This document shows positions 668 through 60,755 of a stretch of 64,000 bases of DNA, in pieces. The stretch is taken from contig JADKIH010000001.1 in assembly GCA_016721305.1 (NCBI GenBank), forward strand, positions 192,091 through 256,090, read 5' to 3'. Each line of letters starts with the position of its first letter. The first letter of the stretch is position 1. Made by a program: the position numbers and the translations under genes. Origin of the DNA: Bacteroidota bacterium (lineage in GTDB: Bacteria; Bacteroidota; Bacteroidia; AKYH767-A; 2013-40CM-41-45). Below the pieces are notes generated by a model. That model made no database searches. It saw only the letters and a list, made by a program, of their open reading frames with translations, and was not told the DNA's origin.

Positions 668-745
668 AGTTGATTGAATATTGAAAATTGAAAATTGAAG
701 ATTAGCCTATCTGGATAGCCAATCTTCAATTTTCAATCTTCATTC
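668..745. repeat. Inverted arrays of TTGAAAATT/TTGAAGATT-type repeats forming a long hairpin between trxA stop and DUF58 start
   Basis: attgaatattgaaaattgaaaattgaagatt ... caatcttcaattttcaatcttcattcttcaa; the arms are reverse complements with a 16-bp central loop. Confidence 0.6.
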
Positions 746-759
746 TTCAATAAAAATAG

Positions 760-1149: not shown

Positions 1150-1200
1150 TTGGGGTGGCATTTTGTCAGGGTTGCGGGTTGCGGGTTGCGGGTTGCGGGT
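1150..1200. repeat. Tandem heptamer repeat (GGGTTGC)x5 between dnaE stop and trxA start
   Basis: gggttgcgggttgcgggttgcgggttgcgggttgcg read directly. Confidence 0.8.
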
Positions 1201-1286
1201 TGCGCACTAATCGGTAACATTTTAACTTACTGGGGGCCACTTATCCCTTATTCACCTGCCTCGCCAATTACCCAAACAGCTTCCTA

Positions 1287-1354: not shown

Positions 1355-4300
1355 TCAAAACTCCACTTCAGCAATCCTCTCCAGAGAATCAATCAAATCA
1401 TTCTGCGGATTCACTTTGAAGCGCTTACTTGGCAGGTCGACTAATACTTTTAAGTCAGCAGGGTCGTAAACTTTGAATTTCAGCGTACAGGTGCCGGCTC
1501 GCTGGGCATTGTCGTTCTTCACGATTTCTGCCACTTGATCAAGCCATTTTTGATCTACTTTCTCAACAGGAACCTTAACGGTGATGTTTTTCAGCATTTT
1601 TTCGCGGACTTCGGCCAACAATTGAATGCTCGTTATCTTAAACTCCGTATTGCCCGGTTGATTGTATCGATCCTGCAATTTTCCTCGGATGAACAAAAAT
1701 TCGCCCGGATTCAGCCACATTTTGAAACGAAGGTAGTCTTCGCCAAAAAGTACCATTTCAAAAGCCTCGTCATAGTCTTCTATGACAAAACTGCCGAATG
1801 GCTTGCCGGTTTACTCATCCGGTGATTGACGGATGTTATCATCGCGCCAATCGCCATATCACGGCCTTTATTCTTCTCGACATCTTTCAAATCCTTAATG
1901 CGATGCGAGATGAATTTTTTCATTTCCAATTTATATAAATCGAGCGGATGGCCGGAAATGTAGAAGCCTATCGCATCTTTTTCAAACTTCAATCTCACTA
2001 AGCTCTCCCAAGGTTCGGTATTCGGAATTGTCGGCTCCGGCGTTTCCGTTCCGGTCGATTCACCAAACAACGAATGTTGCGACGAATTCTTCGACTCCTG
2101 AAAACTGTTTCCATAACGGAGAATTTTCTCGAGGAATGTCGAGCCTTCTTTTTCCGGATGAAAATAATGCGCACGATGCATGTCGGTAAATGAATCGAAT
2201 GCTCCTGCATATGCTAAATTTTCAAACGTCTTTTTATTTGCCGTGCGTAAGTTCACTCGACGAACGAGATCAAAAATACTCTTGAATGGTCCGTTTGCAT
2301 TTCGCTCATCGATGATCGCTTGAACAGCGGCCTCACCTACTCCTTTGATCGCTCCCAAACCAAAACGAATTTGTCCGGCTTTGTTTACAGAGAAATTGTA
2401 CAAGCTTTCATTCACATCAGGCCCCAAAACAGGAACGCCCATACGACGACATTCTTCCATGAAGAATGTAATCTTGTCGATGTTGCTTAAGTTGTGTGTG
2501 AGCACCGAAGCCATGTACTCGCCCGGATAATGCGCTTTTAAATAGGCTGTCTGGAATGCAACGAATGCATAACATGTTGAGTGCGATTTATTGAAGGCAT
2601 AGGAAGCGAACGCTTCCCAGTCAGTCCAGATCTTTTCGCAAATCTTCGGAGCATGACCATTCTTCGCGCAGCCTTCCATGAACTTCGACTTCATTTTGTC
2701 GAGTACATCTTTCTGCTTTTTACCCATTGCCTTACGAAGAACGTCGGCATCACCCTTGGTAAAACCTGCAAGCTTCTGTGAGAGCAACATTACCTGCTCC
2801 TGATAAACGGTTACACCGTAAGTTTCTTTCAGGAACTCTTCCAATTCCGGAAGATCATAAGTTACCGCTTCGCGGCCGTGCTTACGTGCAATGAATTTCG
2901 GAATGTATTCGAGTGGACCCGGGCGATAAAGCGCGTTCATCGCAATCAAATCCTCAAATTTATCGGCGCGTAATTCGCGCAAATATTTTGCATACCGGCC
3001 GACTCAAACTGGAATGTTCCGTTCGTTTCGGCACGTTGATATAATTCAAATGTCTTTTCGTCTTCTAATGGAATCGTATCGATGTCGATCGTCACTCCGT
3101 GATTCAATTTAATCAGTGCTAATGCATCGCGGATGATGGTCAGAGTTTTCAGACCTAAAAAGTCCATCTTGATTACACCGGCATCTTCGATCACCTTTCC
3201 GTCGTATTGCGTAATGAGCAATTCAGTTTCTTTCGAAGTCGAAACCGGAATCAGATCGGTGAGATCCATTGGCGCAATGATGATACCTGCAGCGTGAATT
3301 CCGGTGTTACGCACCGATCCTTCGAGAATGACGGCTTCACGCAATACCTCTGCCTGTAAATCTTTGCCTTTATAAATTTCGCGAAGCTTTCGTACTTCTT
3401 CAAGCTCATCGCTATTCAAACCTTCTTTCTCTCGCAAACTCTTATCGCCATCCATTGGCGCTTCGAGTACACGATTCAATTCAATACCCGGACGCTCGGG
3501 AACCATTTTAGCCAGCATGTTCGATTCGGCCAATGGCAAATCCATTACACGCGCGACGTCTTTGATACTCATCTTCGCCGCCATCGTACCATAGGTAACG
3601 ATTTGAGCAACCTGATTCTTTCCGTATTTGTCAACTACATAGTCGATCACCTTCTGACGACCGACGTCGTCGAAGTCCGTATCAATATCGGGCATGCTCT
3701 TACGATCCGGATTGAGGAAACGCTCGAACAGGAGATTGTATTTGATCGGATCTATATTCGTGATGCCGATGCAATACGCAACTGCTGATCCCGCTGCCGA
3801 TCCACGACCCGGACCAATGAATACTCCTAAATCACGACCGGCTTTAATAAAGTCGGATACAATCAAGAAGTAGCCGGCAAAGCCCATTGTTTTTACTGTG
3901 AACAATTCGAAGTTTAAGCGCTCTTCGATTTCAGGCGTTAATTCTTTGTAACGTTCTTTTGCTCCTAAAAAAGTAAGATGCTTGAGATACTCATCCTGCG
4001 ATTCAAATCCATCCGGAATTTTGAAGTGAGGAAGCATGATATCCTGCTTCAATTTCAACGGCTCGATTTTACCGACGATGTCGTTGGTGTTATCAATCGC
4101 TTCAGGAATGTCGCTGAACAACTTTCCCATTTCCTCCGTCGTCTTGAAATAAAACTGATCGTTGTAGAAAGCAAAACGTTTTCCTTTAACAAAAGCATCG
4201 TCGTCGGAAAACTCTTTCATACTCGGCGTCGACTTCTTCTCGCCGGTATTGATACAAAGAAGAATGTCGTGCGCATTGTAATCTTGCTGATCCACGTAAT

Positions 4301-4940
4301 GCGAATCATTCGACGCAATCACCTTCACATTATACTTCACTGCCCATTGGAGCAGGATTGCATTCACTTTATTTTGTTCCGGAATATCGTGACGTTGTAA
4401 TTCGATATAATAATCTTCACCGAACATATTGAGCCACCACAAAAACTCTTTCTCCCCTTCTGCTTCGCCTTTGCGTAAAATTGCCTGCGGCACAGAAGCA
4501 CCCAGACAACAAGTCGTTGCAATTAATCCTTTGTGATATTTTTCAACGAGCTCTTTATCGATACGCGGATACTTTCCGTACAATCCTTCGATGTAACCGA
4601 GAGAACACATCTTCACTAGATTCTTATATCCTTCCGGATTCTTGGCTAAGAATAACTGATGGCAACGCTTGTCTTTATCTTCTTTGGTGAACTGACGCTT
4701 ATGACGATCGTCTACTAAATAAAATTCGCAACCGACAATCGGCTTAATGACTTGTCCGTCTTTGTTATGTTTGGAAGCTTCCGCCACAAACTTAAAAGCA
4801 CCAAACATATTACCGTGATCCGTGATAGCGATGGCAGGCATCTTATCCTTGACGGCTTTTTTGTAGAGATCAGATATATCGGCAGCACCGTCGAGCAGCG
4901 AGAACTGCGTATGAACGTGCAGGTGGGAAAACGAAGGCAT
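1355..4940 (-). CDS. dnaE: DNA polymerase III alpha subunit, broken into 3 consecutive ORFs (2946..4940, 1780..2982, 1355..1756)
   Basis: N-terminal PHP domain MPSFSHLHVHTQFSLLDGAA; central polymerase core (GRDLGVFIGPGRGSAAGS); C-terminal OB-fold piece. About 1197 aa in total matches DnaE length. An essential gene split twice points to assembly indels. Confidence 0.85.
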
Positions 4941-5014
4941 AGGGAATTGACTAGAGTTGCGAAGATACGAAATTGGGAGGCGGCTGCGTAGTGGAATTTA
5001 TCAACAAAAGGCTC

Positions 5015-5256
5015 CATGTTCAAGGTTCAAAGTTCAAAGTTCAAAGTTCAAGGTTCAAAGTTCAAAGTTCAAGGTTCAATGTTTCGGGGTCTGTTCCTAA
5101 TTTGTCAGAAAAGGGAACGTTTATATTCATGAAAAAATGGACAAAAAGGAGACAATTCGCCTATTTAGCATGACACTCCCTAAAGCGCATTTGAACTTTG
5201 AACCTTGAACTTTGAACTTTGAACTTTGAACTTCGAACTTTGAACCTTGAACTTTA
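5015..5256. repeat. Inverted arrays of GTTCAAA-type heptamer tandem repeats flanking a ~105-bp core
   Basis: Left arm 5015..5081 (gttcaaag/gttcaagg)n. Right arm 5188..5256 (ctttgaac)n is its reverse complement. Sits between the GT2 gene stop and the dnaE start. Confidence 0.8.
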
Positions 5257-6339
5257 GACAACCCTCCGCCCCTTCCACTCATACCCCGAAAACGGCACAA
5301 GCAGTCCGATGATGAAAATGTAAAACCAGTATAGCGGCTGGAGCAGGATCACTAAAAAATTATTCACCGGCATTTTTAGAAAGGAAGAAACGCGGTTGAG
5401 AAAAAATAATTCAGGAAGCGTTTTAGAGATGGCGCATATGAGTAAAATTTTCCAGGAGATAATTCCGAAAATCGTTGCGATCAACGACAAGAATAATCCT
5501 GCATGTGTGAGCCAGGCAATGACGGCAATGATTACAGTTACCGGCGAGAGAGTGAACGGAATTTTCGTAGCCCAACGGCGGCGTTGTTCGTAGAATGAAT
5601 TGATTGTCGATTGCGGATCGCTGACGACGATGGCGTTTTCATTTTTTACAAAGAGTAAATTAGACGGATTTTCATCGGCGATTTTTCTCATCAATTGAGT
5701 ATCGTCGCCGGAAGAGAAACGGGAGCCGGCAAAGCCGTTTACTTGCAAGTAAGCATCACGACGATAGGCCATATTCGCACCATTGCACATCATCGGTTGA
5801 TGTTGCGCAAAAGAAGCTGCAGCAATGCCGGTGAGACCAATCATTTCCAGCGATTGCATTTTTTCGAGCAAAGTTGCTCCGCCCTTTAACGCAACCGGAC
5901 CGGAGAAAAATTTAGCCGACGATGTTTCAGCCACATTTACAAACGAAGAAACCCATTGCGTTCCCACTCTGCAATCGGCATCTGTTGTGATGATGAATTC
6001 ACCATTACTCTGACGAATCGCAAAATCGATTGAAGCTTTCTTCGACTCATTCGGGCTTTGCAGAAGCACAGCATTCGAAAGTCCGTTCTTTTCGATAAGC
6101 GATTTAACTTTTTCAAATGTCGCATCGTTAGAATGATCATCGACAAAATAAATTTTCATTTGTCCGGAATAATCCTGCTTCGCTAAATCGGTAATCAGAT
6201 TTTCAATGACAGCCTCTTCATTACGCATGGCAATTATGACATCGACGCTTTCGATTTTCTTTCGATCAGTTTCACGACGGAAATTCAGTCTGCTCCAGCC
6301 TGTAATAGACCACAGCAGAAAAATGCATAGGCCAGGCAA
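5254..6339 (-). CDS. Family 2 glycosyltransferase with C-terminal transmembrane region
   Basis: DVIIAMRNEE...VDDHSNDAT...ITTDADC (DxD-type motifs), then hydrophobic C-terminal helices. Confidence 0.7.
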   Translation of the reverse strand: MPGLCIFLLWSITGWSRLNFRRETDRKKIESVDVIIAMRNEEAVIENLITDLAKQDYSGQMKIYFVDDHSNDATFEKVKSLIEKNGLSNAVLLQSPNESKKASIDFAIRQSNGEFIITTDADCRVGTQWVSSFVNVAETSSAKFFSGPVALKGGATLLEKMQSLEMIGLTGIAAASFAQHQPMMCNGANMAYRRDAYLQVNGFAGSRFSSGDDTQLMRKIADENPSNLLFVKNENAIVVSDPQSTINSFYEQRRRWATKIPFTLSPVTVIIAVIAWLTHAGLFLSLIATIFGIISWKILLICAISKTLPELFFLNRVSSFLKMPVNNFLVILLQPLYWFYIFIIGLLVPFSGYEWKGRRVV

Positions 6340-6364
6340 AACGCCATGAGAAATATGCCGGCAA

Positions 6365-7344
6365 TCATTCTGCTTTATTTTTTACAAAACGGAAATTCAA
6401 CATGAAGAGCGCTCCGAACAAGGCCGGAATAGCCAGATTGATTACCCATAAAGAAAATACAGCGATCAATACCGGAAGCAAATCCGTCGTCAGATAGCCG
6501 AAGAAATATGCAGCCACTGCTCCGCGAATTCCGAGCTCGGTGAGTGTAAACGTCGGCACTACGGCGATGACGAAAAATGTTCCGGCCGACATGAGGATGG
6601 TTGACGAGAGCGGAAAATGTCCGCCGAAGATTCGGATGAGCCAGATAAATTGTGTCGTGAAAATCACGTATCGAACGAATGCTCCTATGACAACTTTTAG
6701 CAATTCACCCGACGAGTATGAAGAAATGACGTGCAAAGTTTGATTCCATTTTTCCGGAAAACGTAAACGACGAAACACATTTTCCAAAAAGCGAACATTG
6801 AAGTATGCAAGTATTACTATGATTGAACACACAGTGAAACCAAGAATAACCAAAGCCAGAAACGGCTTCGTCATTGGCGTATACTCTGCAAAAAGATCAT
6901 CATCGCCACGCAACCTATTACGAAAGTCACCAGCAATTGAGAGAAATTCTCGATCACGGTGATGATGGTCGCCTGAATTTTATCGGCTTTCTCTAAATGA
7001 AAAACACGGCCGGCGTATTCGCCAATTCGATTGGGAGTAAAAAGACTAATCGACAATCCGGAGAACACCGCTTCGAGTGAACGAAAGATAGAGAGCTCTT
7101 CGAGCTTCGCCATCATCAATTTCCATTTCCACGCCTCCACGAGCCAGTTGAAAAACATGAGGACGAAAATCAAAGCAAGCTGCCAGCCGAGCGACGGCGT
7201 ACTCAATGCGCTTTTTAACTCCTCTAAATACAGCTCATCCCTTCCGGTGATTCGATGATAAATGAACCAGAAGGCTGCAGCAGCCAGGATCATTTTGAGA
7301 ACGAACCAACCATAGATGGATTTATTTCTTTTACTTTGTTGCAT
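6365..7344 (-). CDS. Flippase-like / lysylphosphatidylglycerol-synthase-TM-region-like integral membrane protein, split into 2 overlapping ORFs (6871..7344, 6365..6913)
   Basis: Polytopic membrane protein that starts MQQSKRNKSIYGWFVLKMILAAAAFWFIYHRI. The family is commonly paired with GT2 genes. The overlap of adjacent ORFs implies a frameshift. Confidence 0.45.
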
Positions 7345-18314: not shown

Positions 18315-21300
18315 ATGCGCTTAACCAGTCTCGAAATTAAAGGATTTAAAAGCTTCGGCGACAAAGTGTCGATACACTTTGACAAAGGTGTTACGTCGAT
18401 CGTAGGACCGAACGGAAGTGGTAAATCCAATGTGGTGGATTCGATCCGATGGGTACTCGGGGAACAAAAAACACGTATGCTTCGCTCAGAGAAAATGGAG
18501 AATATCATTTTCAACGGAAATAAAAACCGTAAACCTGCCAGCCTCGCCGAAGTTTCTCTCTCGTTTGAAAATACCAAGAACATCCTCCCTACTGAATATA
18601 GTACTGTAACTATTACCCGTCGTCTGTACAGAACCGGTGAAAGTGAGTACTTACTCAATAATGTTACGTGCCGTCTGAAAGATATCACTGACCTTTTCCT
18701 CGATACAGGTATCGGCTCCGATAGCTATGCCATTATCGAATTGAAAATGGTCGATGAAATTCTCAACGACAAAAACAATGCGATCAAAAATCTGCTCGAA
18801 GAAGCAGCCGGTATCTCTAAGTATAAGATCCGCAAAAAACAAACGCTGCAGAAGCTCGAAGATACCGACACTGATTTAAAACGTGTCGATGACTTACTCT
18901 TCGAAATCGAGCGTAATATGAAACAGCTCGAATCGCAGGCAAAGAAAACAGAACGTTACTACCGACTGAAAGAACAATATAAAGAGTTGTCGACAGAACT
19001 GGCTCTCTTTACTATCTCCGGAAGCAAGAAAACTTTCGATGAACTTCAAAAACAGGAAGCTCATCAGCAGGAAGAGAAAATCGGGCTCGATACGCAAATG
19101 GATACGCTTGAAGCAGAATTGCAACAAGTGAAACTCCTTGCACTCGACAAAGAAAAGAACTATCCGAATCACAAAAGATTCTGAACGATAAAGTTGCTTT
19201 TATCCGTCAGCAGGAAAACGATAAAAAAGTCAGCAATGAAAAACTGACGCACCTTCGCGATAAAGAGGGCTCTCTAACCAATCAACTCACTGCCGATAAA
19301 ACAAATCTGATCGCTACTCAGGATCAGCTGAAACAACTCGACGAAGATCGCTTCAACGAAGAAATCCTCCTCGAGACTTTGCAAAATCAGCTGACTGAAT
19401 TGAAAACGGCTCTCGACGAGACTCGTCTTCGCCACGATCAGATGAATAGTGATATCAACCAGCAAACTTCCGAAGCACAAGGCATTCAATTATCAATGCA
19501 CGAGTCGGAAAAAAGTCTGGCTGTTACTCAGGCAAAGAAAGAATCGCTTCAAAAAGAAATCGATCGCCTTTCTAACGATACTACTGAAAAGCAAATCGAG
19601 CACGACGATCTGCATGCAAAAGCAGAATCGAGCCGTCAACTTAAAGAAGAGAAAGAACAAGGTCTTCGTTCGCTTCACGAAAACGAAGAGAATCTTACTT
19701 CCGACATCATTCGTCTCGACGAAGAATTAAAGAAATATACCGAAGAAGTAATTTCTGAAGGACGAAAACTCGATGCGAAACAGAACGAATACAATCTGAC
19801 TAAGAGTCTTCTCGAAAACTTAGAAGGTTATCCTGAATCGCTCCGTTACCTGCGTAAGAACTCTCCTACGGCCGGTCGTGCTCCTCTCCTATCTGAAATC
19901 CTGAACTGTCAGGCGGAATACAAATCGGCAATCGAAAACTACCTCGATCCGTACATGAACTACTTCGTAATCGAGAATATCGACGAAGCCAGTCGTGTCG
20001 TAAATCTCCTCAGCGAAGCAGCCAAAGGAAGAGCAAACTTCTTTATCCTTAAAAATTTCGAAGAGCATGCAAGCTACTCTCCAGAGACTTACTCTGATTG
20101 TGTTCCTGCTCTTCACATCATCGACATCGAAGAAAAATACCGCCCACTGTGTCAGTATCTTCTCCGCAATGTTTATGTAGTTACCGATAATCAGGAGAAC
20201 ACGCCTTTATTCAAAAGGACAATGCTTCTTCTATCTTCATCTCTCAGAACGGTAAATATTGCCGCACACGTCATTCACTTTCGGGCGGATCTGTCGGCCT
20301 GTTCGACGGAAAACGTATCGGTCGTGCTAAGCATCTCGAAAATCTTTCGAAAGAAATCGGTACTCATTCTGCCGAACTCGAGCGTACAAAAGAACGTCGT
20401 GATGAGGTTCAGAATGCATTGCAAACAGCTAAGCAATCAAAAGAAAAGCTTACTTCTGAGAAAAATCGTCTTAACCAGGAAGTCAATAAGGCTACGCACG
20501 AACATTCTTCACTGAAGAACAAAGCGGAACACCTATTTACTTCTGTTGAAAACAACAAAAAGATCGTTGAAGGACTTTACATGCAATTGCATGCCATTGA
20601 TGATACGCTTCAGCAGAACAATCTGACTTTCCAGGAGCACTTATTGCAACTCCGCATTCAGCACGATAATATCACGGCTAGGTTAACATCTCTCCAGGCA
20701 GATTTCAATACTCTGACGGAGGAAATGAATGCTCAAAGCAATAATTACAATCAGCACAATATCCAGTGTATCCAGCAGCAAAACAAAATTGCCAATCTCG
20801 TTCGCGACCAATCGTACAAGATGCAATTGCAGGAAACACTCAATAAGAATATCGTTACCAATAACGAAGAACTTGAGCAGGTTCAGCAGCGCATCCGCGA
20901 ATTGCTCGAATCGTCGACTGATTTCGACTCTCAACTTATTGGACTATATGCAGAGAAAGAACTTCTTGATCAAAGCGTAGCCGCCGTTGAAGCCGAATAT
21001 TTCAAATCACGTGGTGCTATCGACGAACTCGAAGGTCGTATCCGTACCATCCGCCACAGCCGCGAACAATCTGAACAGATTGCCCTTGCCGTGAAGGACA
21101 AAACGATGGAACTGAAAATCCAGTTGAACTCTCTAAAAGAGCGTCTGAGCGTCGAATTCAATATCGACATCAACGATATCATCGAAAAAGACCCTAATCC
21201 GGAACTTAACGAAGATGAGCTGAAAGAAAAAGTAGCTAAGCAAAAAGGCCAGCTCGACAATTACGGTCCGATTAACCCGATGGCTGTTGAGGCTTATACT

Positions 21301-21870
21301 GAAATCAATGAACGCCATACCTTCATTATTACGCAGAAGGAAGACTTAGCCAAAGCGAAAGAATCGTTGCTCAAAACGATCGAAGAAATCGAGCTGACTG
21401 CAAAGGACAACTTCATGCAGGCCTTTACGATGATTCGCGAGAACTTCATCCACGTATTCCGCTCCCTCTTTACTCAGGACGATGATTGTGATCTGGTACT
21501 CATGGATCCATCGAATCCGACAGAAAGCGACGTACAAATCATTGCCAAGCCAAAAGGAAAACGTCCATTATCGATCAGCCAGCTTTCCGGTGGAGAGAAG
21601 ACGCTGACGGCTACGGCCCTCCTCTTCGGTATCTACTTATTGAAGCCGGCTCCGTTCTGTATCTTCGATGAGGTTGACGCGCCTTTGGATGACATGAACA
21701 TCGATAAGTTCAATAACATCATCCGCAAGTTCTCTAAGGACTCTCAATTCATCATCATCACGCACAATAAGCGTACGATGGCAGCTACCGACATCATGTA
21801 CGGTATCACGATGGTTGAGCAAGGAGTTACTCAGGTTGTACCGGTCGACTTAACTGAGATGGTTGAATAG
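18315..21870 (+). CDS. smc: Chromosome segregation protein SMC, broken into 3 consecutive ORFs (18315..19184, 19379..20515, 20419..21870)
   Basis: N-terminal Walker A (MRLTSLEIKGFKSFGDKV...GPNGSGKSNVVDSIRWVLGEQ), long coiled coils, C-terminal signature LSGGEKTLTATALLFGIYLLKPAPFCIFDEVDAPLDD. Confidence 0.85.
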
Positions 21871-21896
21871 ACTGTAACTTTATTACCTCAATAACG

Positions 21897-21935
21897 AAAA
21901 AGGATCAGAGAGAAATTTCTGATCCTTTTTTTTGT
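21897..21935 (+). terminator. Rho-independent terminator of smc
   Basis: ggatcaga-gagaaatt-tctgatcc hairpin followed by TTTTTTTT. Confidence 0.75.
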
Positions 21936-22189
21936 TTGAAGCATCTCCAATTTACTTTTCAAATCGGAGCAACATCCCTGGTAATTAATTTATTGAACAA
22001 AGTCATCTAAAGAATTAATTCACCATCGGCCTCGAATCCATTACAAAAACCGCTTAAAAGCTATCTCACCGAACCTTCATGCGAAGGGCTTGCTTATTAA
22101 TGGATTGCGGAATATTATCGGAAGTATTAATTTATCGACCTGATACATACGTTTCAAGGTTCGCATAGTTTTATCCGAATGCCGTAACC

Positions 22190-23230
22190 CAAAAACATGC
22201 GAGTTCGCTTTTCGGGTGATGCCATTACGTTCCGGCAAATCCCGCGACCGCTTACTACCATTAGGTCCTTTAGGGCCTACCAATTCCGAATGCATTTTTC
22301 ACCTAAGGAATTCGACACGCGCAATCGAGATATACTGAAACTTTAGACTGCCGAAGCAATTGTCACATACGTTGCGCTAAAAGAGCTCGCCCCTAAAGGG
22401 GCTTCCTGTACGCGTGTAGTCCAGTGTTACCAAGAGTTCGGCCCTAAAGGGCCTGCTACTTCGAAACGCGCTCTTACAGTGGAATATCTTTACAGCTACA
22501 TTCCATGCAGGAATCTTTAAGCTATCGAAGAAATGGACACATACGTTGCGCTAAAAGAGCTCGCCCCTAAAGGGGCTTGCTATACGCGTGTAGTCCAGTG
22601 TTACCAAGAGTTCGGCCCTAAAGGGCCTGCTACTTCGAAATGCGCTCTTACAGTGGAGTATCCCTACGGTTACTATTCCATGCAGAGATCTTTACACTGT
22701 CGAAGAAATGGACACACGCTTCCGCTCAAAGAGTCCGCCAGAAATTCCAATAAGTTCCGGCAAATCCCGCGATCGCTTACCACTATTAGCCCCTTTAGGG
22801 GCGAACTCTCGGTAACAAGCATCTAAACGAAAACACTAAGCCCCTTTAGGGGCGAACTCTAAAAGGGGCTCGCTCTTCGCGTGTAGTTCGGTGTTACCAA
22901 AAGTTCGGCACTGAAGGTCCTGCTACTTCGAAATGCGCTCGTAAAGTGGAATATCTCCACGGCTATCATTACATGCATGGATCATTACTCTGTCGAAGAA
23001 ATGGACACACGCTTCCGCTCAAAGTGTCCGCCAGAAATACCATTAAGTTCCTGCAAATCCCGCGATCGCTTACCACTATTAGCCCCTTTAGGGGCGAACT
23101 CTCGGTAACAAGCATCTAAACGAAAACACTAAGCCCCTTTAGGGGCGAACTCTAAATGAACTCGCTGTTGACATGTAGTTCAGTGTTACCAAAAGTTCGA
23201 CGCTGAAGGGCCTCTTGCCTTCATCAGTAC
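22190..23230. repeat. Degenerate tandem-repeat array (2 units of ~182 bp, then 2 units of ~280 bp) rich in short GC hairpins
   Basis: Units begin acatacgttgcgctaaaagagctcgcccctaaaggggc at 22365 and 22547, and acacgcttccgctcaaag at 22729 and 23008. Each ends ctgtcgaagaaatggac. Hairpins GCCCC-TAAA-GGGGC, GGCCC-TAAA-GGGCC and GCCCC-TTTA-GGGGC recur. Confidence 0.75.
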
Positions 23231-23342
23231 TTTCAGAAAACACAAAGCAGGTGAACGACGGAGAACTTGAAAAACCTTTAAACCATTCTAGTCTATTCGT
23301 AACTATGATACCGGAAACTCAAAGTAACTCTTCCCTGCGGTC

Positions 23343-23374
23343 AAAAAAAAAGAGGCCCTGAGGCCTCCTTTTCG
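23343..23374 (-). terminator. Rho-independent terminator downstream of the 23401..24640 gene
   Basis: gaggcc-ctga-ggcctc hairpin with a 9-nt T-run on the minus strand (A-run on plus). Confidence 0.6.
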
Positions 23375-23400
23375 TATAGTAATTTGAAGTTGATACTTGA

Positions 23401-25283: not shown

Positions 25284-28200
25284 TTACTCAACTACAAGGC
25301 GAAGTGTTTGAGACTGGCCATCTTCAGCTGTTAAGCTAACCATGTACAATCCTTTAGCCACCTGGCTCATGTCGATTTCTTGAGTGTTGTAACCTTCAAC
25401 AGCAGTGATTACATCGCTAACGATAACATTACCTAAAAGGTCTGTTACTTTCACTACATATTTAGCTTTTGCACCTGCAGTGAATGCTACAGTTGCTTTG
25501 CCATTTGTAGGGTTAGGGAATGCTGTCAATTCAGTTGCAGTAGCCATAGCATCTTGAGCATCACGGCAGAACAAGCTTACGCTAACAGTTACACCACGGA
25601 GATGAAGCACCACAAGCATTCAATGCGTTAGCACGAACGATTGCTGATGAGCTCAGAGCTGTATTGTAGTAGTTAACGATAGCTGAAGTTCCAGATGGAG
25701 CGATTGAAGCACCACCAGTTACTGACCATGAGTAAGATGTTGCACCTGCTACCGGAACTAAGCTATAAGTAACCGCAGACTGTGATTTACAAACTGCTGT
25801 AGGACCTGTAACAACTGGAGGAGCAGGACGTGAAGTAACTGTGTAACAACGAGCAACACCTGAACCACAAGAGTTATTTGCAGTTACGCAAATGTTACCC
25901 TGAGTTGTGAATGCACCTGTGAAGTTAACAGTGATAGACAAGCCTGAGTTAGTAACGATACTAACACCTGCTGGAACTGTCCATGAGTAAGAAGTAGCAC
26001 CGGCAACAGCAGCGATTGAGTAAGTCACGTTAGACGTACCACAATTTGCGAAACCTGGACCAGTGATAGAACCCGGTTGAGTTGGAACGAATTTCACAAC
26101 GAATGAACGGCTATAAGTACCGCAACCGTTACCTACAGTGATTGTCACTGTTCCTGAAGTCCAAGATGGTCCCATTGCGAATGTAGCAGAAGTTGTTGTT
26201 GAAGTCTGACCTGATGTAACCAGAGTTGCACCACCTGTGATAGACCAAGTGTAAGTTGAAGCACCCGGTACTACAGGCATTGTGTAAGTAGCAGTGTTGT
26301 TAGCACATACAAACTGAGGACCCGTAACTGCATTAGAGTGAGTAGGGATACCTGTGATAGTCATACCACGAACCGGGCTAAGACCATAGCAGTTTGAACC
26401 ACGAACCTGGATTGAACCTTGTCCGAAACCTGCAGGAACTGAAACTTGAACTGTGTTAGTTCCCTGACCACTTACGATAGATACACCTGTACCGGTTACA
26501 GTCCAGATATAGCTAAGTGCGTTAGCAGAAGTTGTAGAGTAAGTATAAGTTCCAGGACCACAAGCTACAGCCGGACCAGAGATAACTGCCGGTTGAGAAG
26601 CGTAAGTAGCGATAACCGGAATGCTCATACAAGACTGTAAACCTGTACCACAAAGGTTAACCGCAGCTACACAGATGAATCCACCTGCATACGTGTTATT
26701 GAATGCTACAGTGATACTGTTTGTTGTAGAAGAACCAGTTGCGCCTCCAGGGAGTGACCATACATAAGATGTTGCACCAGCAACCGGAGCTACTGAGTAA
26801 ACAATACCTACTGAGTTACGGCAAGCACCTGATGGACCAGAGATCGCACCCGGAGTTGCAGGAGAACCACCTGAACCACCTACAGTAGCTGAAGCAGAAC
26901 CTGTACAACCGTTACCGTCAGTGATAATTACTGTGTAAGTTCCGATTGCAAGACCTGTTGCAGTTGCAGAAGTCTGACCATTTGACCAGAGGGTAAGTAT
27001 AAGAACCTGTACCACCTGTTGCACTTACAGTTGCAGTACCATCGCTACCAGCACAGCTAGAAGCTGTTGTAGTTGTAGTTCCTTCAACTTTAGCAGGCTG
27101 AGTTAATGTTACAGTTACAGAAGCTGAACAACCGTTAGCGTCAGTTACACTGTAAACTGCTGTACCTGCGAATTGAGTAAACACGCCTGTACCAACGTAA
27201 GCCGGTGTACCATCAGCTGCTGAAATAGTAACTGAAGTTGAACCACCGAAGCAAGCAATTGTTCCTGCAGAGTAAGAAGCAGTAAGAACAGCTACCGGAG
27301 CAGCTACGCCTGAACCTGGAGCAGAAGGACAACCATTAGCAGTTGCAGTTACTGTGTATGTACCTGCTGTGCTAACAGTGATACTAGATGTTGTTGCACC
27401 ATTGCTCCACAGTAATGAACCTGAAGCTGATGTAGACAATGTAGTCGTTGCATCACAGTTGTTAACCACAGTTACAACCGGAGTTGCAGGAGTTGGGTTG
27501 ATTGTCAACGCAAGGATCTCAGTGTGGCAACCTACTGTGTTAGTATAAGTACCAGATGCAGTATAAGTAGAACCGTTTACTGACCAAGTGTAAGTATCAC
27601 AAGCTGAAGCTGTAGTTGTGTTAGATGTACTTGGAGTGATTGTCAACACGAGGATTTCTGTGTGGCAACCTACTGTGCTAGTATAAGTACCTGAAGCAGT
27701 GTAAGTGTTACCGTCTACTGACCAAGTGTAAGTATCACAAGCTGAAATTGAAGTTGTGTTTGATGTACTTGGAGTGATTGTTAACACGAGAACTTCTGTG
27801 TGGCAACCAGTTACTACTGAATAAGTACCGCTTGCAGTGTAAGTTGTACCGTTTACTGACCAAGTGTAAGTATCACAAGCTGAAATTGTAGTTGTGTTAG
27901 ATGTACTTGGAGTGATTGTCAACACGAGGATCTCAGTGTGGCAACCTACTGTGTTAGTATAAGTACCGCTTGCAGTGTAAGTTGTACCGTTTACTGACCA
28001 AGTGTAAGTATCACAAGCTGAAATTGAAGTTGAGTTAGATGTACTTGGAGTGATTGTCAACACGAGAACTTCTGTGTGGCAACCTACTGTGCTAGTATAA
28101 GTACCGGAAGCAGTGTAAGTGTTTCCGTCAACTGACCAAGTGTAAGTATCACAAGCTGAAATTGTAGATGTGTTAGATGTACTTGGAGTGATTGTTAACA

Positions 28201-31200: not shown

Positions 31201-31282
31201 CACTCGACGTCGCCAGTCCCGTCAGAAAGACGAGAAGAGTCATAAGAACTCCTCTGGTGAATAAGTGCGTACTTGTTTTCAT
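25284..31282 (-). CDS. Giant (~2000 aa) T9SS-secreted repeat adhesin, 3 ORF pieces (26918..31282, 25582..27024, 25284..25619), with ~21 tandem 46-aa repeats, SprB-like Cys-containing repeats and a canonical T9SS type-A C-terminal sorting domain
   Basis: Signal peptide [28 protein letters not shown]. Repeat unit [46 protein letters not shown]. C-terminal [13 protein letters not shown]...[13 protein letters not shown]...[25 protein letters not shown] is the classic Por secretion CTD. Confidence 0.7.
27470..30390. repeat. ~21 near-identical 138-bp tandem repeats inside the adhesin coding sequence
   Basis: The DNA reads agtgattgtcaacacgag(g/a)a(t/c)ctc(a/t)gtgtggcaacc... with a 138-bp period; the protein period is 46 aa. 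Confidence 0.85.
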
Positions 31283-48817: not shown

Positions 48818-49189
48818 GATGGTTAAGTTATGTTGATTATTAATTTGATTTTTCAAAGTGGGTATAATAGAAAAGCACGCGTATGAAATGCGTTTCATCG
48901 CGTTGTGTAAAATAGTAAACAGATAGGAAGCTCGCGTGTATGAGTTCACGTATAGTCTAGTTCGTTAAGTTGTGATTTATATGTGTGGATGCACGGTTGG
49001 GACGCGCATGTTAAAGGTGAGATATTTATTTGGGTTTTGCAAATTATTTTTTTGAACACCCTGTTAACAGCGGATCGCAGTGCTGGCGGGGCTTTGAATG
49101 ATATGTTAAACTTAAAAAATCTGAACCCTAAAAACAACTCGTTTTGGGAATAGTTGACAGCATTTTGGCGAACGGCTTGTTTTTCGTGG

Positions 49190-49450
49190 TAAAATTCTGA
49201 ATTCTGAATTATGAATTATGAATTCAGAAAAACCTCTGTACAGGCCGTCAATCCTCGTTTTTAGCCGTTTTTCGTTGTTCTGATTTTTAAGTGGTTGATT
49301 TTTAACTGTTAGGTAATTTGGTTACTATATATATAGAGTGTGAGTTGTTTTAACGCACTTTGAAGTAAGTTGCTTTTGAATTCAGAATTATGAATTATGA
49401 ATTATGAAACTGGTAGCCGTTCTGAATTTTGAATTCTAAATTCTGAATTC
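49190..49450. repeat. Inverted arrays of TGAATTC/TGAATTA heptamer repeats flanking a ~140-bp AT-rich core, upstream of the giant adhesin gene
   Basis: Left arm attctgaattctgaattatgaattatgaattcag (49190..49233). Right arm tgaattcagaattatgaattatgaattatgaa...ctgaattttgaattctaaattctgaattc (49372..49450). Confidence 0.75.
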
Positions 49451-49456
49451 CTCCTT

Positions 49457-51094: not shown

Positions 51095-51106
51095 ACTGGC
51101 AGGCGG

Positions 51107-51246
51107 ATTAGCTGATTAGCTGATTAGCTAATTAGCTAATGTTGGCAATTTGGTTAGTTGGTTACTCTATTATATATGTATACTCTTTTATTACTTGTAT
51201 GCTACACTATTCACTCATCAGCTAATCAGCTAATCAGCTAATCAGC
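51107..51246. repeat. Inverted arrays of GATTAGCT/CAGCTAAT octamer repeats around an AT-rich core
   Basis: gattagctgattagctgattagctaattagctaat (51107..51150) ... cagctaatcagctaatcagctaatcagccaat (51205..51246). Confidence 0.8.
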
Positions 51247-51249
51247 CAA

Positions 51250-52410
51250 TCACTTACTGCGAGCCTTCTTCAGCAGTATGTTATAAGCCGCCAAACAGAA
51301 GTACTTCACATCGGTTACGAAAGGACTCTTTTCATAAGCTTGTAAGTAGCGCATTTCGGAAGCCTGGATTTCTTCGATTGTTTTTGGCATATCTACATAG
51401 AATGGCGGAACAAGACCCGGTTTGTGCTTTAGGCGTCTTTCCTGGAGTTCTTCGGAATACAATCCTAAGTAGTGTGATGAGAGAGGGCGAACGCCTACAA
51501 TCTTGAGGTCTCCTTTTATGAGATTCATGATCATCGGTAATTCGTCGATCCAGTAACGGCGGAAGAGGCGACCGAGCGTAGACACGCGGAAGTCGTTATT
51601 CATCTTGCCTCCATCGGCCAGATTGTTCGTGTCGTATACATACTTCTGGATGTACTCACTATATGAGTGCATGGTACGCATCTTATATACATATATAACC
51701 TTTCCGTTTTTGCCGTGGCGGCGCATACGGAAGATTGGTCCATAAACCGGTTCGTAATCGAAGAGCGGTTCTTTTACTTTTGAAGCAACGAAGTAGAGAT
51801 TCTTGCCGATGAATTTCATCGAGCGGATTTCGAAACCGGCAGCATAAAGGCGGCCTAAGGTTTCGGTACGGGAAAGGACTTTGTTACGTTCGCCGACAAG
51901 TACATTATAAAAGAGGCGAGTGATTGGGAACTTCGGGAATACTCGTTTTAAGAAAAAGTCGAGTACATAATATATATGAGCAAGTCCTTTCGGGAACTTG
52001 TTAAAAATTCTTGTTTTGCGGAGATACTTAGTTTCGACACAACCGACAAACAAACCGCCGTCGACCAAATGATCATTTACGTTATGCAAAAACTTGTTGA
52101 TTCCACGAACATCATTAATTCGTTTTAAGTTGATGATCGTGTTTGCGTTGTTTGGAAGATGGTTGATGCTTTCGGAAATCGAAGTACGCATTACAAAAGT
52201 TCCGGGTGCATTGATCTGACAAAATTCCGAAACGTACTTTTTGACGTCGCGTTCCATTCCGCCGATCTTTTCAAGATGCGGACGAAAGGCATGCGATCGT
52301 TTGGAAGAACGCCGAACTTCTTTTGTCGAAACAGCATTCGATCCTTGAACCATTTGTGGTCGGAACGAAAACTGTCGTAAAGCAGCTTTAGTACTTTTTT
52401 CTCGTTTCAT
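51250..52410 (-). CDS. Polyprenyl-phosphate sugar phosphotransferase (bacterial sugar transferase family)
   Basis: C-terminal DELPMIMNLIKGDLKIVGVRP motif, matching the family consensus [21 protein letters not shown]. Confidence 0.65.
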   Translation of the reverse strand: MKREKSTKAALRQFSFRPQMVQGSNAVSTKEVRRSSKRSHAFRPHLEKIGGMERDVKKYVSEFCQINAPGTFVMRTSISESINHLPNNANTIINLKRINDVRGINKFLHNVNDHLVDGGLFVGCVETKYLRKTRIFNKFPKGLAHIYYVLDFFLKRVFPKFPITRLFYNVLVGERNKVLSRTETLGRLYAAGFEIRSMKFIGKNLYFVASKVKEPLFDYEPVYGPIFRMRRHGKNGKVIYVYKMRTMHSYSEYIQKYVYDTNNLADGGKMNNDFRVSTLGRLFRRYWIDELPMIMNLIKGDLKIVGVRPLSSHYLGLYSEELQERRLKHKPGLVPPFYVDMPKTIEEIQASEMRYLQAYEKSPFVTDVKYFCLAAYNILLKKARSK

Positions 52411-53900: not shown

Positions 53901-55069
53901 TGAATTTGCAGAATTCCATGGAGAAAAAGAACCCATACAGCGAAGCACTTTTTCGATTACGACAGTACATCGAGAAAGAAGAATTCAAAGGCTACGACCC
54001 GTATGATACGCTGTGCTCTCCTATCCCATTTCACTGGTTCACTTCCTGGGGACCGGTATTGGCGACACAGTTTCAAAAGAGAAATCCGATTAACATTCGT
54101 CCGTTGCTGGGTATTCGAAAAGATTACAATCCGAAAGGCATTGGATTGTTACTGGATACATATTGCAGACTGAAAGAGAAATCTGCTTCGGACATATACG
54201 ACAAACAAATTGATTTTTGTTTTGATTACCTGCAACAGAATAGCACAGAAGGTTTTTCGGGCGCATGCTGGGGCTATAATTTTCCATGGGCAACGACGGA
54301 GAAATATCTGCCTTCGTTTGAGCCATCTTCTGTCGTAACGGGTTTTGTGAGCAGAGGAATTGACCGATACAGAATCTTGACCGGCGATGAACGGGCATCT
54401 GAGTTTATACAGAGTGCGGCAGTTTTCATTGATAAAGATCTGACAAAAACTACTTTCGAAAGCGGTATTTCCATCAGCTACACGCCGGTGCTAACCGATT
54501 GTTGTTACAATGCATCCTTATTAGGTGCAGAAGTGCTGGCAAGGGCTCACCGGTTGAAGGCGAATGCTCATTACAGGCAGAATGCCATTGCTGCAGTAAA
54601 TTTTGTTATTAGTAAACAGTTGGATGATGGTTGCTGGAATTACTCGATGAATTTAAAGACGGGGGAAGAACGAAAACAGATTGATTTTCATCAGGGGTAT
54701 GTGATCGACAGTATTCGAATAATTGCTAAGTTGCTGGAGATAAAAGATACGATGTGGGAGCAGGCAATTCGTAAGGGTTTGAAGTTTTATAAGGAGCAGC
54801 AGTTTTTCGAAGATGGAAGAAGTTTGTGGAGATTGCCTAAGGAATTTCCTGTGGAGATTCATAATCAGTCGCAGGGGATTATTACTTTTTTTGATAGTGG
54901 TGATGTTGAATTTGCGAAGAGAATTGCGGATTATACGATTGCGCATATGCAGGATCGAAAGGGGTATTTCTATTATCGGAATTTTCGTTGGTATAAGAAT
55001 AAGATTTCCTATATGAGATGGAGTAATGCGTGGATGATGGTGGCGTTGGAGAGGTTGGTTTCAGGCTGA
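53900..55069 (+). CDS. Hypothetical protein (389 aa) in the polysaccharide cluster
   Basis: Long ORF with good coding appearance and the start overlapping the upstream stop (ATGA). No family recognised by eye. Confidence 0.4.
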   Translation: MNLQNSMEKKNPYSEALFRLRQYIEKEEFKGYDPYDTLCSPIPFHWFTSWGPVLATQFQKRNPINIRPLLGIRKDYNPKGIGLLLDTYCRLKEKSASDIYDKQIDFCFDYLQQNSTEGFSGACWGYNFPWATTEKYLPSFEPSSVVTGFVSRGIDRYRILTGDERASEFIQSAAVFIDKDLTKTTFESGISISYTPVLTDCCYNASLLGAEVLARAHRLKANAHYRQNAIAAVNFVISKQLDDGCWNYSMNLKTGEERKQIDFHQGYVIDSIRIIAKLLEIKDTMWEQAIRKGLKFYKEQQFFEDGRSLWRLPKEFPVEIHNQSQGIITFFDSGDVEFAKRIADYTIAHMQDRKGYFYYRNFRWYKNKISYMRWSNAWMMVALERLVSG

Positions 55070-55385
55070 TTTATTTCATGCTGATTTGTTTCCTGCTGAT
55101 TTGTTTCCTGCTGATTTGTTTCCTGCTGATTTGTTTCCTGCTGATTTGTTTCCCGCAGATTTCGCAGACAAAAAATCCCGCAGATTACGCGGATGGGGTC
55201 CTGTTGATTTGTTTCCCGCGGATTTGTTTCCCGCAGATTTCGCAGACAAAAAATCCCGCAGATTACGCAGATGGGTTCCTGCTGATTTGTTTCCCGCGGA
55301 TTTGTTTCCCGCGGATTTGTTTCCCGCTGATTTGATTCCCGCTGATTTTCCCGCAGATTACGCAGATGGGTTCTCGTAGAAATTC
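55066..55385. repeat. Left repeat arm: (gctgatttgtttcct)n tandem 15-mers grading into ~62-bp units cctgctgatttgtttcccgcagatttcgcagacaaaaaatcccgcagattacgcagatgggtt
   Basis: Read directly; it is the reverse complement of the array at 55845..56220. Confidence 0.85.
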
Positions 55386-55458: not shown

Positions 55459-55836
55459 ATGACTGAAAATGAAATTTCTTATATTGTTAGAGGTGCGATC
55501 TATGAAGTGTACAACGAGTTTGGTCCTGGGCTTTTTGAAAAGGTTTATGAGAAAATATTGCAAATCCGTCTTAGAAAGAGAGGATTGTCAGTAAAGGCTC
55601 AGGTTGTCGTCCCACTTATTGTTGACGGTATCGTTATTGACTCTGCATTCAAAGCGGATTTAATAGTTGAAGAAAAAGTTATTGTTGAAATAAAATCTAT
55701 TGATGCTATTGGCAAAGTTCAGCACATGCAGTTGCTAACATACCTTAGACTATCAAAATTGAAATTAGGCATACTCGTAAACTTCAACACTGATGAAATA
55801 TCAAAATCTATTTTTCGAAAAGTGAACAATTTGTAA
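55459..55836 (+). CDS. GxxExxY family protein (PD-(D/E)XK nuclease-like mini-protein)
   Basis: 125 aa; MTENEISYIVRGAIYEVYNEFGPGLFEKVYEKIL carries the GxxExxY signature, followed by the D...E.K core (IVEIKSIDAIG). Confidence 0.8.
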   Translation: MTENEISYIVRGAIYEVYNEFGPGLFEKVYEKILQIRLRKRGLSVKAQVVVPLIVDGIVIDSAFKADLIVEEKVIVEIKSIDAIGKVQHMQLLTYLRLSKLKLGILVNFNTDEISKSIFRKVNNL

Positions 55837-55844
55837 TAGATATC

Positions 55845-56220
55845 CGCAGGAAATAATCCTCGAGAAACCATCTGCGTAATCTGCGCTTTTTTTTGTCTGC
55901 GTAATCTGCGGGAAACAAATCAGCAGGAACCCATCTGCGTAATCTGCGGAATTTTTGTCTGCGAAATCTGCGGGAAACAAATCAGCAGGAACCCATCTGC
56001 GTAATCTGCGGAATTTTTGTCTGCGAAATCTGCGGGAAACAAATCAGCAGGAACCCATCTGCGTAATCTGCGGGAAATAATCCGCGGGAACCCATCTGCG
56101 TAATCTGCGGGATTTTTGTCTGCGAAATCTGCGGGAAACAAATCAGCAGGAACCCATCTGCGTAATCTGCGGGATTTTTGTCTGCGAAATCTGCGGGAAA
56201 TGATTAGTGTTATCTGCAGG
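55845..56220. repeat. Right repeat arm: ~5.5 tandem copies of the 62-bp unit aacccatctgcgtaatctgcggaatttttgtctgcgaaatctgcgggaaacaaatcagcagg
   Basis: Read directly; inverted relative to 55066..55385. Confidence 0.85.
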
Positions 56221-59957: not shown

Positions 59958-59980
59958 GGGGTTCTAGGCTTTTATTTTTA

Positions 59981-60058
59981 TTGAAGATTGAATATTGAAG
60001 ATTGAAGATTCTCTCTTCGTAAGCACCAATATTCAATTTTCAATTTTCAATTTTCAAT
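59981..60058. repeat. Inverted arrays of TTGAAGATT / CAATTTTCAA repeats between the methyltransferase stop and the oxidoreductase start
   Basis: ttgaagattgaatattgaagattgaagatt ... aatattcaattttcaattttcaattttcaattcc; same word family as 668..745. Confidence 0.75.
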
Positions 60059-60755
60059 TCCTCCTAAACGCCATTATGACCAGATTGGAAGAAACTTTCT
60101 TCCCACCCAGCATGTCGGCTAGTTTACTGAACAGAGAACGATTGGCATAAAATTCATGTTCGATGAATTCAAAGCCATTCAATTCAAATATTTTTTTGGC
60201 CTCATCGGTTGTCCACAGATGATGCACGAATTTGTAGTACGACGGTTTTCCGGAAATGCGGAAAGCCAATTTTTCGAAGCTTCGATACCAACTGCTTTTG
60301 TTCGGGAAAGACACGAGCAGTGTACCTCCCGGTTTGAGCAGATGATTAAACATCTTGGCAACGCCATCGGAATCGGGCACGTATTCGATCACACTCGAAC
60401 TAATGAGCAGATCGGCCCGTTCCATATCAGGGGTTACGGAAACGGGGATATATAGTTTTCGGAATTTCGTTATTTTATCACTTTTCTTCGTTTTTTCCTC
60501 CTCACAGAGCTCAATCATGCCGTCGGAACCATCCCAGCCTTCGACACGAATGCCCTTTTCGGCCAGATAAAACGAGAACAATCCCGGACCGCATCCGATA
60601 TCATAGGCGAAATTTGCCCCGGGAGCGTACTTGTCCAAAAAACGAGTCCAAACCTCATAGCGCTGCTTAAAGTCGTCAGACGAGCTATAATTGCCCTTAA
60701 ACGAGCCGGCACGGGACGATATATGTTCGGTGAACGAATTTTCAGCCATTTGCAA
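60054..60755 (-). CDS. Class I SAM-dependent methyltransferase
   Basis: AYDIGCGPGLFSFYLAEKG glycine-rich SAM motif. Confidence 0.75.
   Translation of the reverse strand: MQMAENSFTEHISSRAGSFKGNYSSSDDFKQRYEVWTRFLDKYAPGANFAYDIGCGPGLFSFYLAEKGIRVEGWDGSDGMIELCEEEKTKKSDKITKFRKLYIPVSVTPDMERADLLISSSVIEYVPDSDGVAKMFNHLLKPGGTLLVSFPNKSSWYRSFEKLAFRISGKPSYYKFVHHLWTTDEAKKIFELNGFEFIEHEFYANRSLFSKLADMLGGKKVSSNLVIMAFRRN

Follow-up and report, generated by a model that had tools for sequence, protein, structure and literature searches.

Inverted heptamer arrays at stop codons in an uncultured Bacteroidota lineage: probable members of the heptameric simple-sequence-repeat hairpins

Tandem repeats with a unit of seven nucleotides (nt) are known from several bacterial phyla. 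According to the summary of Mrazek et al. (2007) given in PMC4679880, heptamers are the commonest long simple sequence repeats (SSR), and polymerase slippage was proposed as their cause. In Xanthomonas the GGGAATC heptamer repeats are 89-93% intergenic and no function has been found for them (Rehm et al. 2015, PMC4692102). They lie on average 28 nt from the upstream open reading frame (ORF) and 160 nt from the next one, divergent spacers are under-represented, and 70-75 inverted pairs per genome form potential stem-loops; between close species the repeat length differs while site and pair type persist (PMC4692102). Heptamer units are also found on both sides of the P6b stem of the Nostoc tRNA-Leu intron, with 7-nt indels on one or both sides, and there one class of repeats has repeatedly given way to another without a change of site (PMC4476775). 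Finally, heptamer direct repeats (TAACTGA etc.) were described in Beggiatoaceae, Cyanobacteria and five Bacteroidetes, with one inverted case among the 170 repeat sets of the BOGUAY genome of Beggiatoaceae (MacGregor 2015, PMC4679880). Here, we analyze inverted arrays of such short words in 64 kb of a Bacteroidota bacterium (GCA_016721305.1, contig JADKIH010000001.1, positions 192,091 to 256,090), called the window in the following, starting from the element E3 that separates a GT2 family glycosyltransferase gene from dnaE.

An earlier note, made from the sequence of the window alone, had reported inverted GTTCAAA arrays at 5015..5256, and they were found exactly there both by Tandem Repeats Finder (TRF), which was used for the detection of arrays, and by the inverted-repeat scan used for the pairing of arms. 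The element is composed as follows.

5013..5083, no strand assigned: dnaE-side arm of E3, GTTCAAR x9.4, ending ~76 nt before the dnaE ATG (4940)
5084..5189, no strand assigned: core of E3, 106 nt of unique sequence with neither a long ORF nor a TAnnTTTG promoter box
5190..5260, no strand assigned: GT2-side arm of E3, TTTGAAC x9.4 on the + strand, corresponding to GTTCAAR on the gene strand, with the GT2 stop at its edge

TRF delimits GTTCAAA x9.4 at 5018-5083 and TTTGAAC x9.4 at 5190-5255, and in the inverted-repeat scan the arms are 62-67 nt long, 90-94% complementary and ~110 nt apart. Both flanking genes are encoded on the - strand, the GT2 family glycosyltransferase (PF00535) upstream and dnaE (PHP and DNA_pol3_alpha domains, start 4940) downstream, and the TAA stop of the former (5254-5256) is the exact edge of the right arm. 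A second contig (L168), whose GT2 is 96% identical to that of the window, has its GTTCAAR array at this stop codon too; the order of the unit variants differs, and the contig terminates inside the array.

Comparable arrays occur at further loci of the window.

670..754, no strand assigned: E1, ATTGAAR hairpin, arms 670-706 / 718-754 of 37 nt, 86% complementary, loop 11
1166..1204, no strand assigned: E2b, (GGGTTGC)x5 direct array without inverted partner; x2 in L169
1299..1352, no strand assigned: E2a, ATCAGCTA/GATTAGCT array with a local hairpin at the stop of dnaE (1355); shared with L169
49193..49229, no strand assigned: E4b, distal AATTCWG array, the third array of the GAATTCW locus, conserved in L161
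49378..49450, no strand assigned: E4a, GAATTCW hairpin, arms 49378-49408 / 49420-49450
51102..51252, no strand assigned: E5, GATTAGCT with period 8, arms 51102-51141 / 51209-51252, 87-92% complementary, ~70-nt core 51142-51208
59980..60059, no strand assigned: E6, ATTGAAG (59980-60010) versus ATTGAAA (60027-60059), an imperfect hairpin with one mismatch per unit

Thus the recurring inverted-array architecture proposed in the earlier note stands at E3, E1, E4, E5 and E6 and falls at 1150-1352, where GGGTTGC x5 and ATCAGCTA are different words and not reverse complements of each other; of this spacer only the ATCAGCTA part folds locally, and as a whole it folds no better than its shuffles (z = -1.6). 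The recurring hairpins do lie between same-strand genes, with the upstream arm abutting the stop codon or overlapping it. E1 follows the stop of thioredoxin (760-762) and precedes a DUF58 gene that starts at 659, and E4a sits 6 nt after the stop (49457-49459) of an outer-membrane-protein gene that is Wzi-like. E5 covers the stop of the sugar transferase (51250-52), and 7 nt separate it from the ATG of the outer-membrane-protein gene that follows (51094). E6 overlaps the stop of a methyltransferase (60054-56), with 22 nt between it and the GTG of the dehydrogenase gene that follows (59957). Two details needed correction: the supposed 9-bp word TTGAAGATT has a period of 7, and the locus 49190-49450 does not extend from stop to start, the next start being hundreds of nt away. 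That each locus has its own word is half true, since two loci of the window share ATTGAAR, another word, GATTAGCT, is likewise found at two, and most words differ by only one or two substitutions (AATTGAA, AATTCAR, AGTTCAA). Within E6, either arm has been homogenised to a unit variant of its own. The cores are unique sequence, E4 and E5 having just a 10-mer in common, so that an interpretation of the cores as dispersed repeats was ruled out. The 10-mer AGGAGGAATT is common to the 5' edges of E4a (49451-49460) and E6 (60057-60066) on the gene strand, two elements with different repeat words, and at E6 the methyltransferase ORF takes its final codons and its stop from it. The (GGGTTGC)x5 array at 1169-1204 forms on the + strand a G-quadruplex-type motif (G3 tracts, 4-nt loops) and recalls the GGGAATC repeats of Xanthomonas.

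The arrays are real and highly non-random. TRF detected 13 of them with a period of 7-8 and at least 3 copies (scores 48-111; ten with period 7 and three with period 8; 4-9.4 copies), while 100 first-order Markov simulations of the window yielded a mean of 0.14 arrays per 64 kb and a best score of 36; a chance origin is excluded. The DNA outside long ORFs makes up 9% of the window and contains 12/19 of the arrays with a period of 5-12; for 10 of these 19 an inverted partner exists. For comparison we used ~1 Mb (991 kb) of dnaE-region loci from 80 other Bacteroidota together with loci of close relatives; the nearest genome in the species collection is an uncultured Bacteroidota metagenome-assembled genome (MAG) with 85% DnaE identity. 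Arrays are five times rarer in the 991 kb of dnaE loci than in the window (6 versus 30 per 100 kb), and period 7 is the commonest one there (26/59 arrays). When window, dnaE loci and close relatives were pooled, 42 intergenic arrays of period 7-8 were obtained, 29 of them in co-directional, 10 in convergent and 3 in divergent spacers, and the upstream stop lies at a median distance of 28 nt, the next start at one of 122 nt. The window is probably a long-read assembly with indel errors, because dnaE (1355-4940), smc (18315-21870) and the giant adhesin gene (44459-48949) are split into several ORFs and the adhesin region shows four single-base indels against the 98.4% identical contig L161. An assembly artefact as source of the arrays was ruled out because the same arrays are present in three independent short-read contigs, L161, L168 and L169.

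Since they match the published heptamer repeats of Xanthomonas, Mrazek, MacGregor and Nostoc, the elements probably belong to a described class, the heptameric (7-8-nt) SSR hairpins, whose function is unproven. The features of heptameric intergenic SSR are found here, namely a tandem unit, an excess with non-coding bias, proximity to stop codons and variation in unit steps. As in Xanthomonas, tandem 7-nt units are intergenic, stop-proximal (28/122 nt here versus 28/160 nt), mostly in co-directional spacers and arranged in inverted pairs. Xanthomonas differs in having one G-rich word with G-quadruplex potential, whereas several AT-rich words are used here and GGGTTGC alone is G-quadruplex-like; the arms are longer here, the host is an uncultured Bacteroidota lineage, and whole-hairpin replacement between strains, as seen here, was not reported for Xanthomonas. 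With the short tandemly repeated repetitive (STRR) sequences of cyanobacteria the elements have in common many heptamer words per genome and heptamer-built stems, and the class replacement in P6b parallels the swap at E4 described below. In contrast, P6b of Nostoc belongs to the functional fold of a structured RNA, a group I intron, while the present elements are found in mRNA spacers and in a different phylum. Like the repeats of MacGregor they are intergenic heptamer arrays in Bacteroidetes, with several words per spacer and with relatives that have shorter, repeat-free spacers; those repeats are, however, direct arrays mostly just upstream of start codons, whereas inverted pairs beside stops dominate here.

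In the comparison with related genomes, suggested as a check by the earlier note, arrays indeed recur in relatives and evolve fast, with changes of copy number, turnover of words and one swap of a hairpin. The relatives concerned are L161 (ERZ28614791, a short-read contig 98.4% identical to the window across 8.3 kb), L169 (a contig with a thioredoxin 97% identical to that of the window), and L162-L166 and L167, with 81% and 73% protein identity, respectively, at the sugar-transferase/outer-membrane-protein junction. At the same site the copy number differs between relatives by whole 7-nt units: GCAACCC is present five times in the window versus twice in L169, which retains the ATTAGC hairpin at the dnaE stop, and AATTCAG x2-3 in the window and L161 stands against x5.5 in L162-L165. 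In L161 E5 is identical to that of the window, and E4a, the GAATTCW hairpin, is replaced by an ATTGAAR hairpin. The latter reaches from the outer-membrane-protein TGA as far as CTTACTTCAAAG and, with the loop flanks included, shares 88% identity with E6 over 76 nt and 82% with E1. The divergence between L161 and the window is confined to 49297-49593, with 59%, 76% and 92% identity in blocks of 100 nt, and no target-site duplication was found at the edges of the swapped cassette; judged from these sequences, the swap has the appearance of a recombination tract. At the sugar-transferase/outer-membrane-protein junction the arms consist of GATTAGCT in the window and L161, of TTAGCTAA-type words with a different core in L162-L166, and of GGTGAGT/ACTCACC in L167. 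After the outer-membrane-protein gene L162 has GTAAGTA and AATTCAG arrays, and L167 a direct GGTCAAA array without hairpin. The E4-orthologous site of L167 accordingly has z = +2.5, and the E5-orthologous site of L162 folds weakly (z = -3). Plain terminators follow thioredoxin in L170, L011 and L021, the latter two with a single heptamer array behind the terminator. In the dnaE loci of other Bacteroidota few inverted pairs were detected, in L001 (the closest relative in this set, with ATTGAGA/ATTGAAG words), in L055 and in L068, the cultured Sandaracinomonas limnophila FSY-15. In the spacer 5' of dnaE in L001 (5646-5780) a 38-nt repeat x3.5 without inverted partner starts at the stop codon; it is built from the heptamers ATTGAGA, ATTGAAG, ATTGAAG, ATGGAGA and ATTGTTT.

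A long RNA hairpin in a read-through transcript, as anticipated in the earlier note, is strongly predicted for three elements and more weakly for a fourth. Folded as gene-strand RNA, E3 (5013-5260) has a minimum free energy (MFE) of -114.6 kcal/mol (z = -10.6, stem ~62 bp), E1 (670-754) of -38.1 kcal/mol (z = -11.7) and E5 (51102-51252) of -56.4 kcal/mol (z = -11.9). For E6 (59980-60059), the arms of which differ at one position per heptamer, it is -20.7 kcal/mol (z = -3.4), and the spacer 49180-49456 taken as a whole has z about -2. The Bacteroidetes promoter consensus (TTG...TAnnTTTG) is absent from every core; the flanking genes are therefore probably co-transcribed, and the idea that the arms insulate a promoter was dropped.

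The proposed kinship with REP (repetitive extragenic palindromic) sequences, BIME (bacterial interspersed mosaic elements) or terminators is only partly supported. Intrinsic terminators were rejected because the A+U-rich stems of 32-62 bp are not G+C-rich and no U-tract follows directly: E1, E5 and E6 are followed by no U-run, and in E3 a U4 begins 9 nt past the stem. Canonical hairpin-plus-U terminators are found elsewhere in the window (21895-21930 and 23345-23375) and also in relatives, and in S. limnophila a short GAATTAT hairpin is followed by UUUU. Rfam, searched with the whole window at the gathering threshold and by an E-value scan of 21870-23400, gave no matching family. With REP, BIME and REPIN (REP doublets forming hairpins) the elements share the occurrence as extragenic palindromes inside operons, several copies, RNA-hairpin potential and proposed stabiliser roles. 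In contrast with them the arms are tandem arrays, there is no conserved short palindrome (of 20-40 nt) and no GTAG/CGTC head, and only the ATTGAAR type recurs; no RAYT (REP-associated tyrosine transposase, a Y1 transposase) was found in the subset of window ORFs that was scanned. Miniature inverted-repeat transposable elements (MITE) were rejected as well, as the swapped cassette shows no target-site duplication, the cores are unique and no insertion sequence with matching ends was found. The relative L167 (GCA_016708785.1, JADJFC010000016.1) contains at 5568-6830 a Y1_Tnp (RAYT-like) gene (5568-6029) followed by ~13 tandem 62-nt units, which are GC-rich, each with the palindrome GTCCGTCCCTACGGGAC, and unlike the heptamer hairpins; by its sequence this has the appearance of the classical REP-plus-RAYT arrangement and indicates how REP look in this lineage. 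In the window itself, within a 1.5-kb non-coding stretch, tandem units of 174 and 293 nt at 22337-23213 include the GC-rich palindromes GCCCCTTTAGGGGC, GCCCCTAAAGGGGC, GGCCCTAAAGGGCC and TTAGCCCCTTTAGGGGCGAAC, and these repeats look more like a REP/BIME cluster, and like the L167 units, than the heptamer hairpins do.

In our opinion the arrays are made and remodelled at the level of DNA, with effects on RNA as a by-product, a reading to which we assign a probability of roughly 0.6. Replication slippage shifts the copy number in 7-nt steps and homogenises each arm, recombination replaces whole hairpins, and one hairpin type is present at several loci. These processes are documented by the strain comparison and the recurring hairpin type given above, as are the stop-proximal position and the strong predicted stems. 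The inverted partner would probably arise by fold-back or template-switch copying. Arrays would then accumulate just after the stop codon, since this may be the only dispensable DNA of tight operons, and a self-complementary insert might be tolerated there because it folds back in the polycistronic RNA, so that the folded stem would rejoin the upstream stop and the next start at its base. A hairpin would thus restore the proximity of stop and start, as the distance from the base of the stem in E1, E5 and E6 is 2-9 nt to the stop and 7-22 nt to the start that follows. Stems of 32-62 bp should be substrates of RNase III, and those predicted here exceed the ~20 bp of near-continuous double-stranded RNA that serve as criterion for its sites; an effect on mRNA processing or stability would therefore be a by-product, sometimes co-opted, and not the reason for the existence of the arrays. 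The hairpin is not obligatory, as seen from the mere direct array in L167, the weak fold in L162 and the missing partner of E2b.

Several points weigh against this DNA-level origin. Both spacers flanking the outer-membrane-protein gene are occupied in 4/4 lineages (73-99% protein identity), which could point to site-specific selection rather than tolerance. The fold-back origin of the second arm is a deduction and cleavage by RNase III a prediction. The arms of E1, E3 and E5 are over-complementary only if the register is ignored, and with one variable position per 7 this comparison has little power. Moreover, array density, vocabulary and enrichment are derived from 64 kb and ~1 Mb of fragments.

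One locus of the window combines inverted arrays with a gene.

55065..55380, no strand assigned: left arrays of E7, GCTGATTTGTTTCCT x6.5 and CCCGCAGAT-type words
55459..55836, + strand: GxxExxY / PDDEXK_3 gene in the E7 core (PF13366, E = 5e-37; TIGR04256)
55855..56200, no strand assigned: right arrays of E7, reverse complement of the left arrays, ATCTGCG words

The earlier note had counted these arms among the same elements. Inverted arrays do flank the gene (300 nt on each side, arms 40-75 nt, 85-100% complementary), but the simple heptamer hairpins lack CGCAGAT-type words, and the GxxExxY cassettes are a distinct family. In 80 metagenome loci encoding GxxExxY relatives inverted repeats between the flanks are common, compared with 1/250 control positions. 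The top upstream 7-mer is CGCAGAT (24/37 non-redundant loci) and the top downstream one its reverse complement (24/37); both words together were found in 26/37 non-redundant loci across Bacteroidota versus 1/400 controls. Variants of the word are CGCTGAT and CACAGAT, and in some lineages CACAGAT and ATCTGTG co-occur on both sides. Strict complementarity of the arms is not general, since combinations such as CGCAGAT upstream with ATCAGCG downstream also occur; because of them the conservation of a word describes these loci better than mere pairing, which suggests that the CGCAGAT arrays are a protein-recognised cis element. We found no earlier description of GxxExxY genes bracketed by inverted CGCAGAT arrays in the literature searched. 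A further cassette is located at L162 86-457, and in L033 a GxxExxY-like gene lies between inverted CGCAAAGA octamers. At a gut-bacterial locus (L126 versus L137) two different GxxExxY cassettes occupy the same site, beginning at the upstream stop codon. In L055 (4615-4945) gene-less CGCAGAT-type inverted arrays are nested inside a GTAAGTA/ACTTACT heptamer hairpin, with a predicted fold of outer and inner stem (-116 kcal/mol, z = -7.2). To connect the GxxExxY cassettes causally with the heptamer hairpins is speculation.

Among other explanations, selection for intercistronic RNA hairpins appears unlikely to us. Cleavage by RNase III or a block of 3'-exonucleases would here set the stabilities of the cistrons, or the hairpin would couple termination with reinitiation. 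Long double-stranded stems between genes of one transcript do resemble, as far as predicted folds permit this comparison, the RNase III processing hairpins of phage T7; the sites in its early mRNA are short and conserved, with internal loops, and are not made of tandem words. Strong gene-strand stems are predicted, all elements lie between same-strand genes at or on the stop and three of them end 7-22 nt before the next start, the cores are free of promoter boxes, and the occupancy of sites persists across species while the words change. Sense and antisense, however, fold equally well, the antisense strand being as good or better in 3/5 elements, and no sense-strand G.U bias as mark of RNA selection was found in the elements tested. 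Also the mismatch in every heptamer of E6 (z = -3.4), the direct array at the E4 site of L167, the weak fold at the E5 site of L162, and the plain terminator or nothing at the same junctions in L170, L011 and L021 speak against it; in all, evidence for selection at the RNA level was not found, and some orthologous sites have a direct array only.

That the elements resemble REP/REPIN or MITE and are mobilised in trans by a Y1 transposase of the RAYT type or by the PD-(D/E)XK protein GxxExxY is improbable. ATTGAAR hairpins with a similar loop are present at three sites in two strains, a gene-less CGCAGAT-type pair is nested in the heptamer hairpin of L055, arrays flank GxxExxY with the frequency given above, and L167 encodes a Y1_Tnp. 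This gene, however, adjoins the different, GC-rich 62-nt units, the words are too diverse for one sequence-specific enzyme, the cores are unique and a GTAG/CGTC head is absent; and the swapped cassette without target-site duplication shows the ~300-nt tract of raised divergence that is expected of homologous recombination and not of transposition. It would be a long shot to regard all inverted word arrays as footprints of an undescribed mobile system, with GxxExxY genes and their CGCAGAT arrays as its autonomous and the gene-less stop-codon hairpins as its non-autonomous relatives or products. We consider it very improbable that the arrays serve as platforms at the level of DNA or of single strands, be it as arrays of protein sites (a Csp- or S1-like OB-fold, i.e. 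cold-shock protein or oligonucleotide-binding fold, per heptamer), as contingency loci or as formers of cruciforms or G-quadruplexes. One such fold per heptamer was proposed for the TAACTGA repeats (MacGregor 2015, PMC4679880), regulatory roles of start-codon-proximal heptamer arrays are proposed there and in a preprint on Nostoc recF/recO, the copy number varies between strains, and (GGGTTGC)x5 is a motif of the G-quadruplex type. Yet the arrays are nearer to stops than to starts, their flanking genes are housekeeping genes (dnaE, trx) as well as surface genes, and the many different words argue against a specific binder. The spacers of 75-148 nt also make the extrusion of cruciforms from E3-E5 unlikely, as known from DNA topology in general.

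Two further features of the window concern the giant adhesin. The non-coding leader 5' of its gene (48950-49192) shares 100% identity with L161, 81% with L162-L165 and 74% with L167; it is far better conserved than the adjoining arrays and may represent a promoter, a 5' untranslated region or a small RNA. In an ORF of the giant-adhesin region (1454 aa, 26918-31282) a 138-nt unit is repeated x20 at 27499-30262, where the protein presumably has a repeated domain.

Among the simple repeats of bacteria, intergenic heptamers belong to the most strongly over-represented ones. This lineage adds to the class a new host, an AT-rich vocabulary of many words and a documented swap of a hairpin between strains. 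As the positional signature is nearly that of Xanthomonas, a common cause across phyla may be assumed, be it that self-folding inserts right behind stop codons are tolerated or that the phyla share a mutational process. With word turnover at the same operon junctions, copy steps of 7 nt and a swap at 98.4% identity the lineage offers natural experiments, and GxxExxY, a large protein family without function, would gain a conserved cis element.

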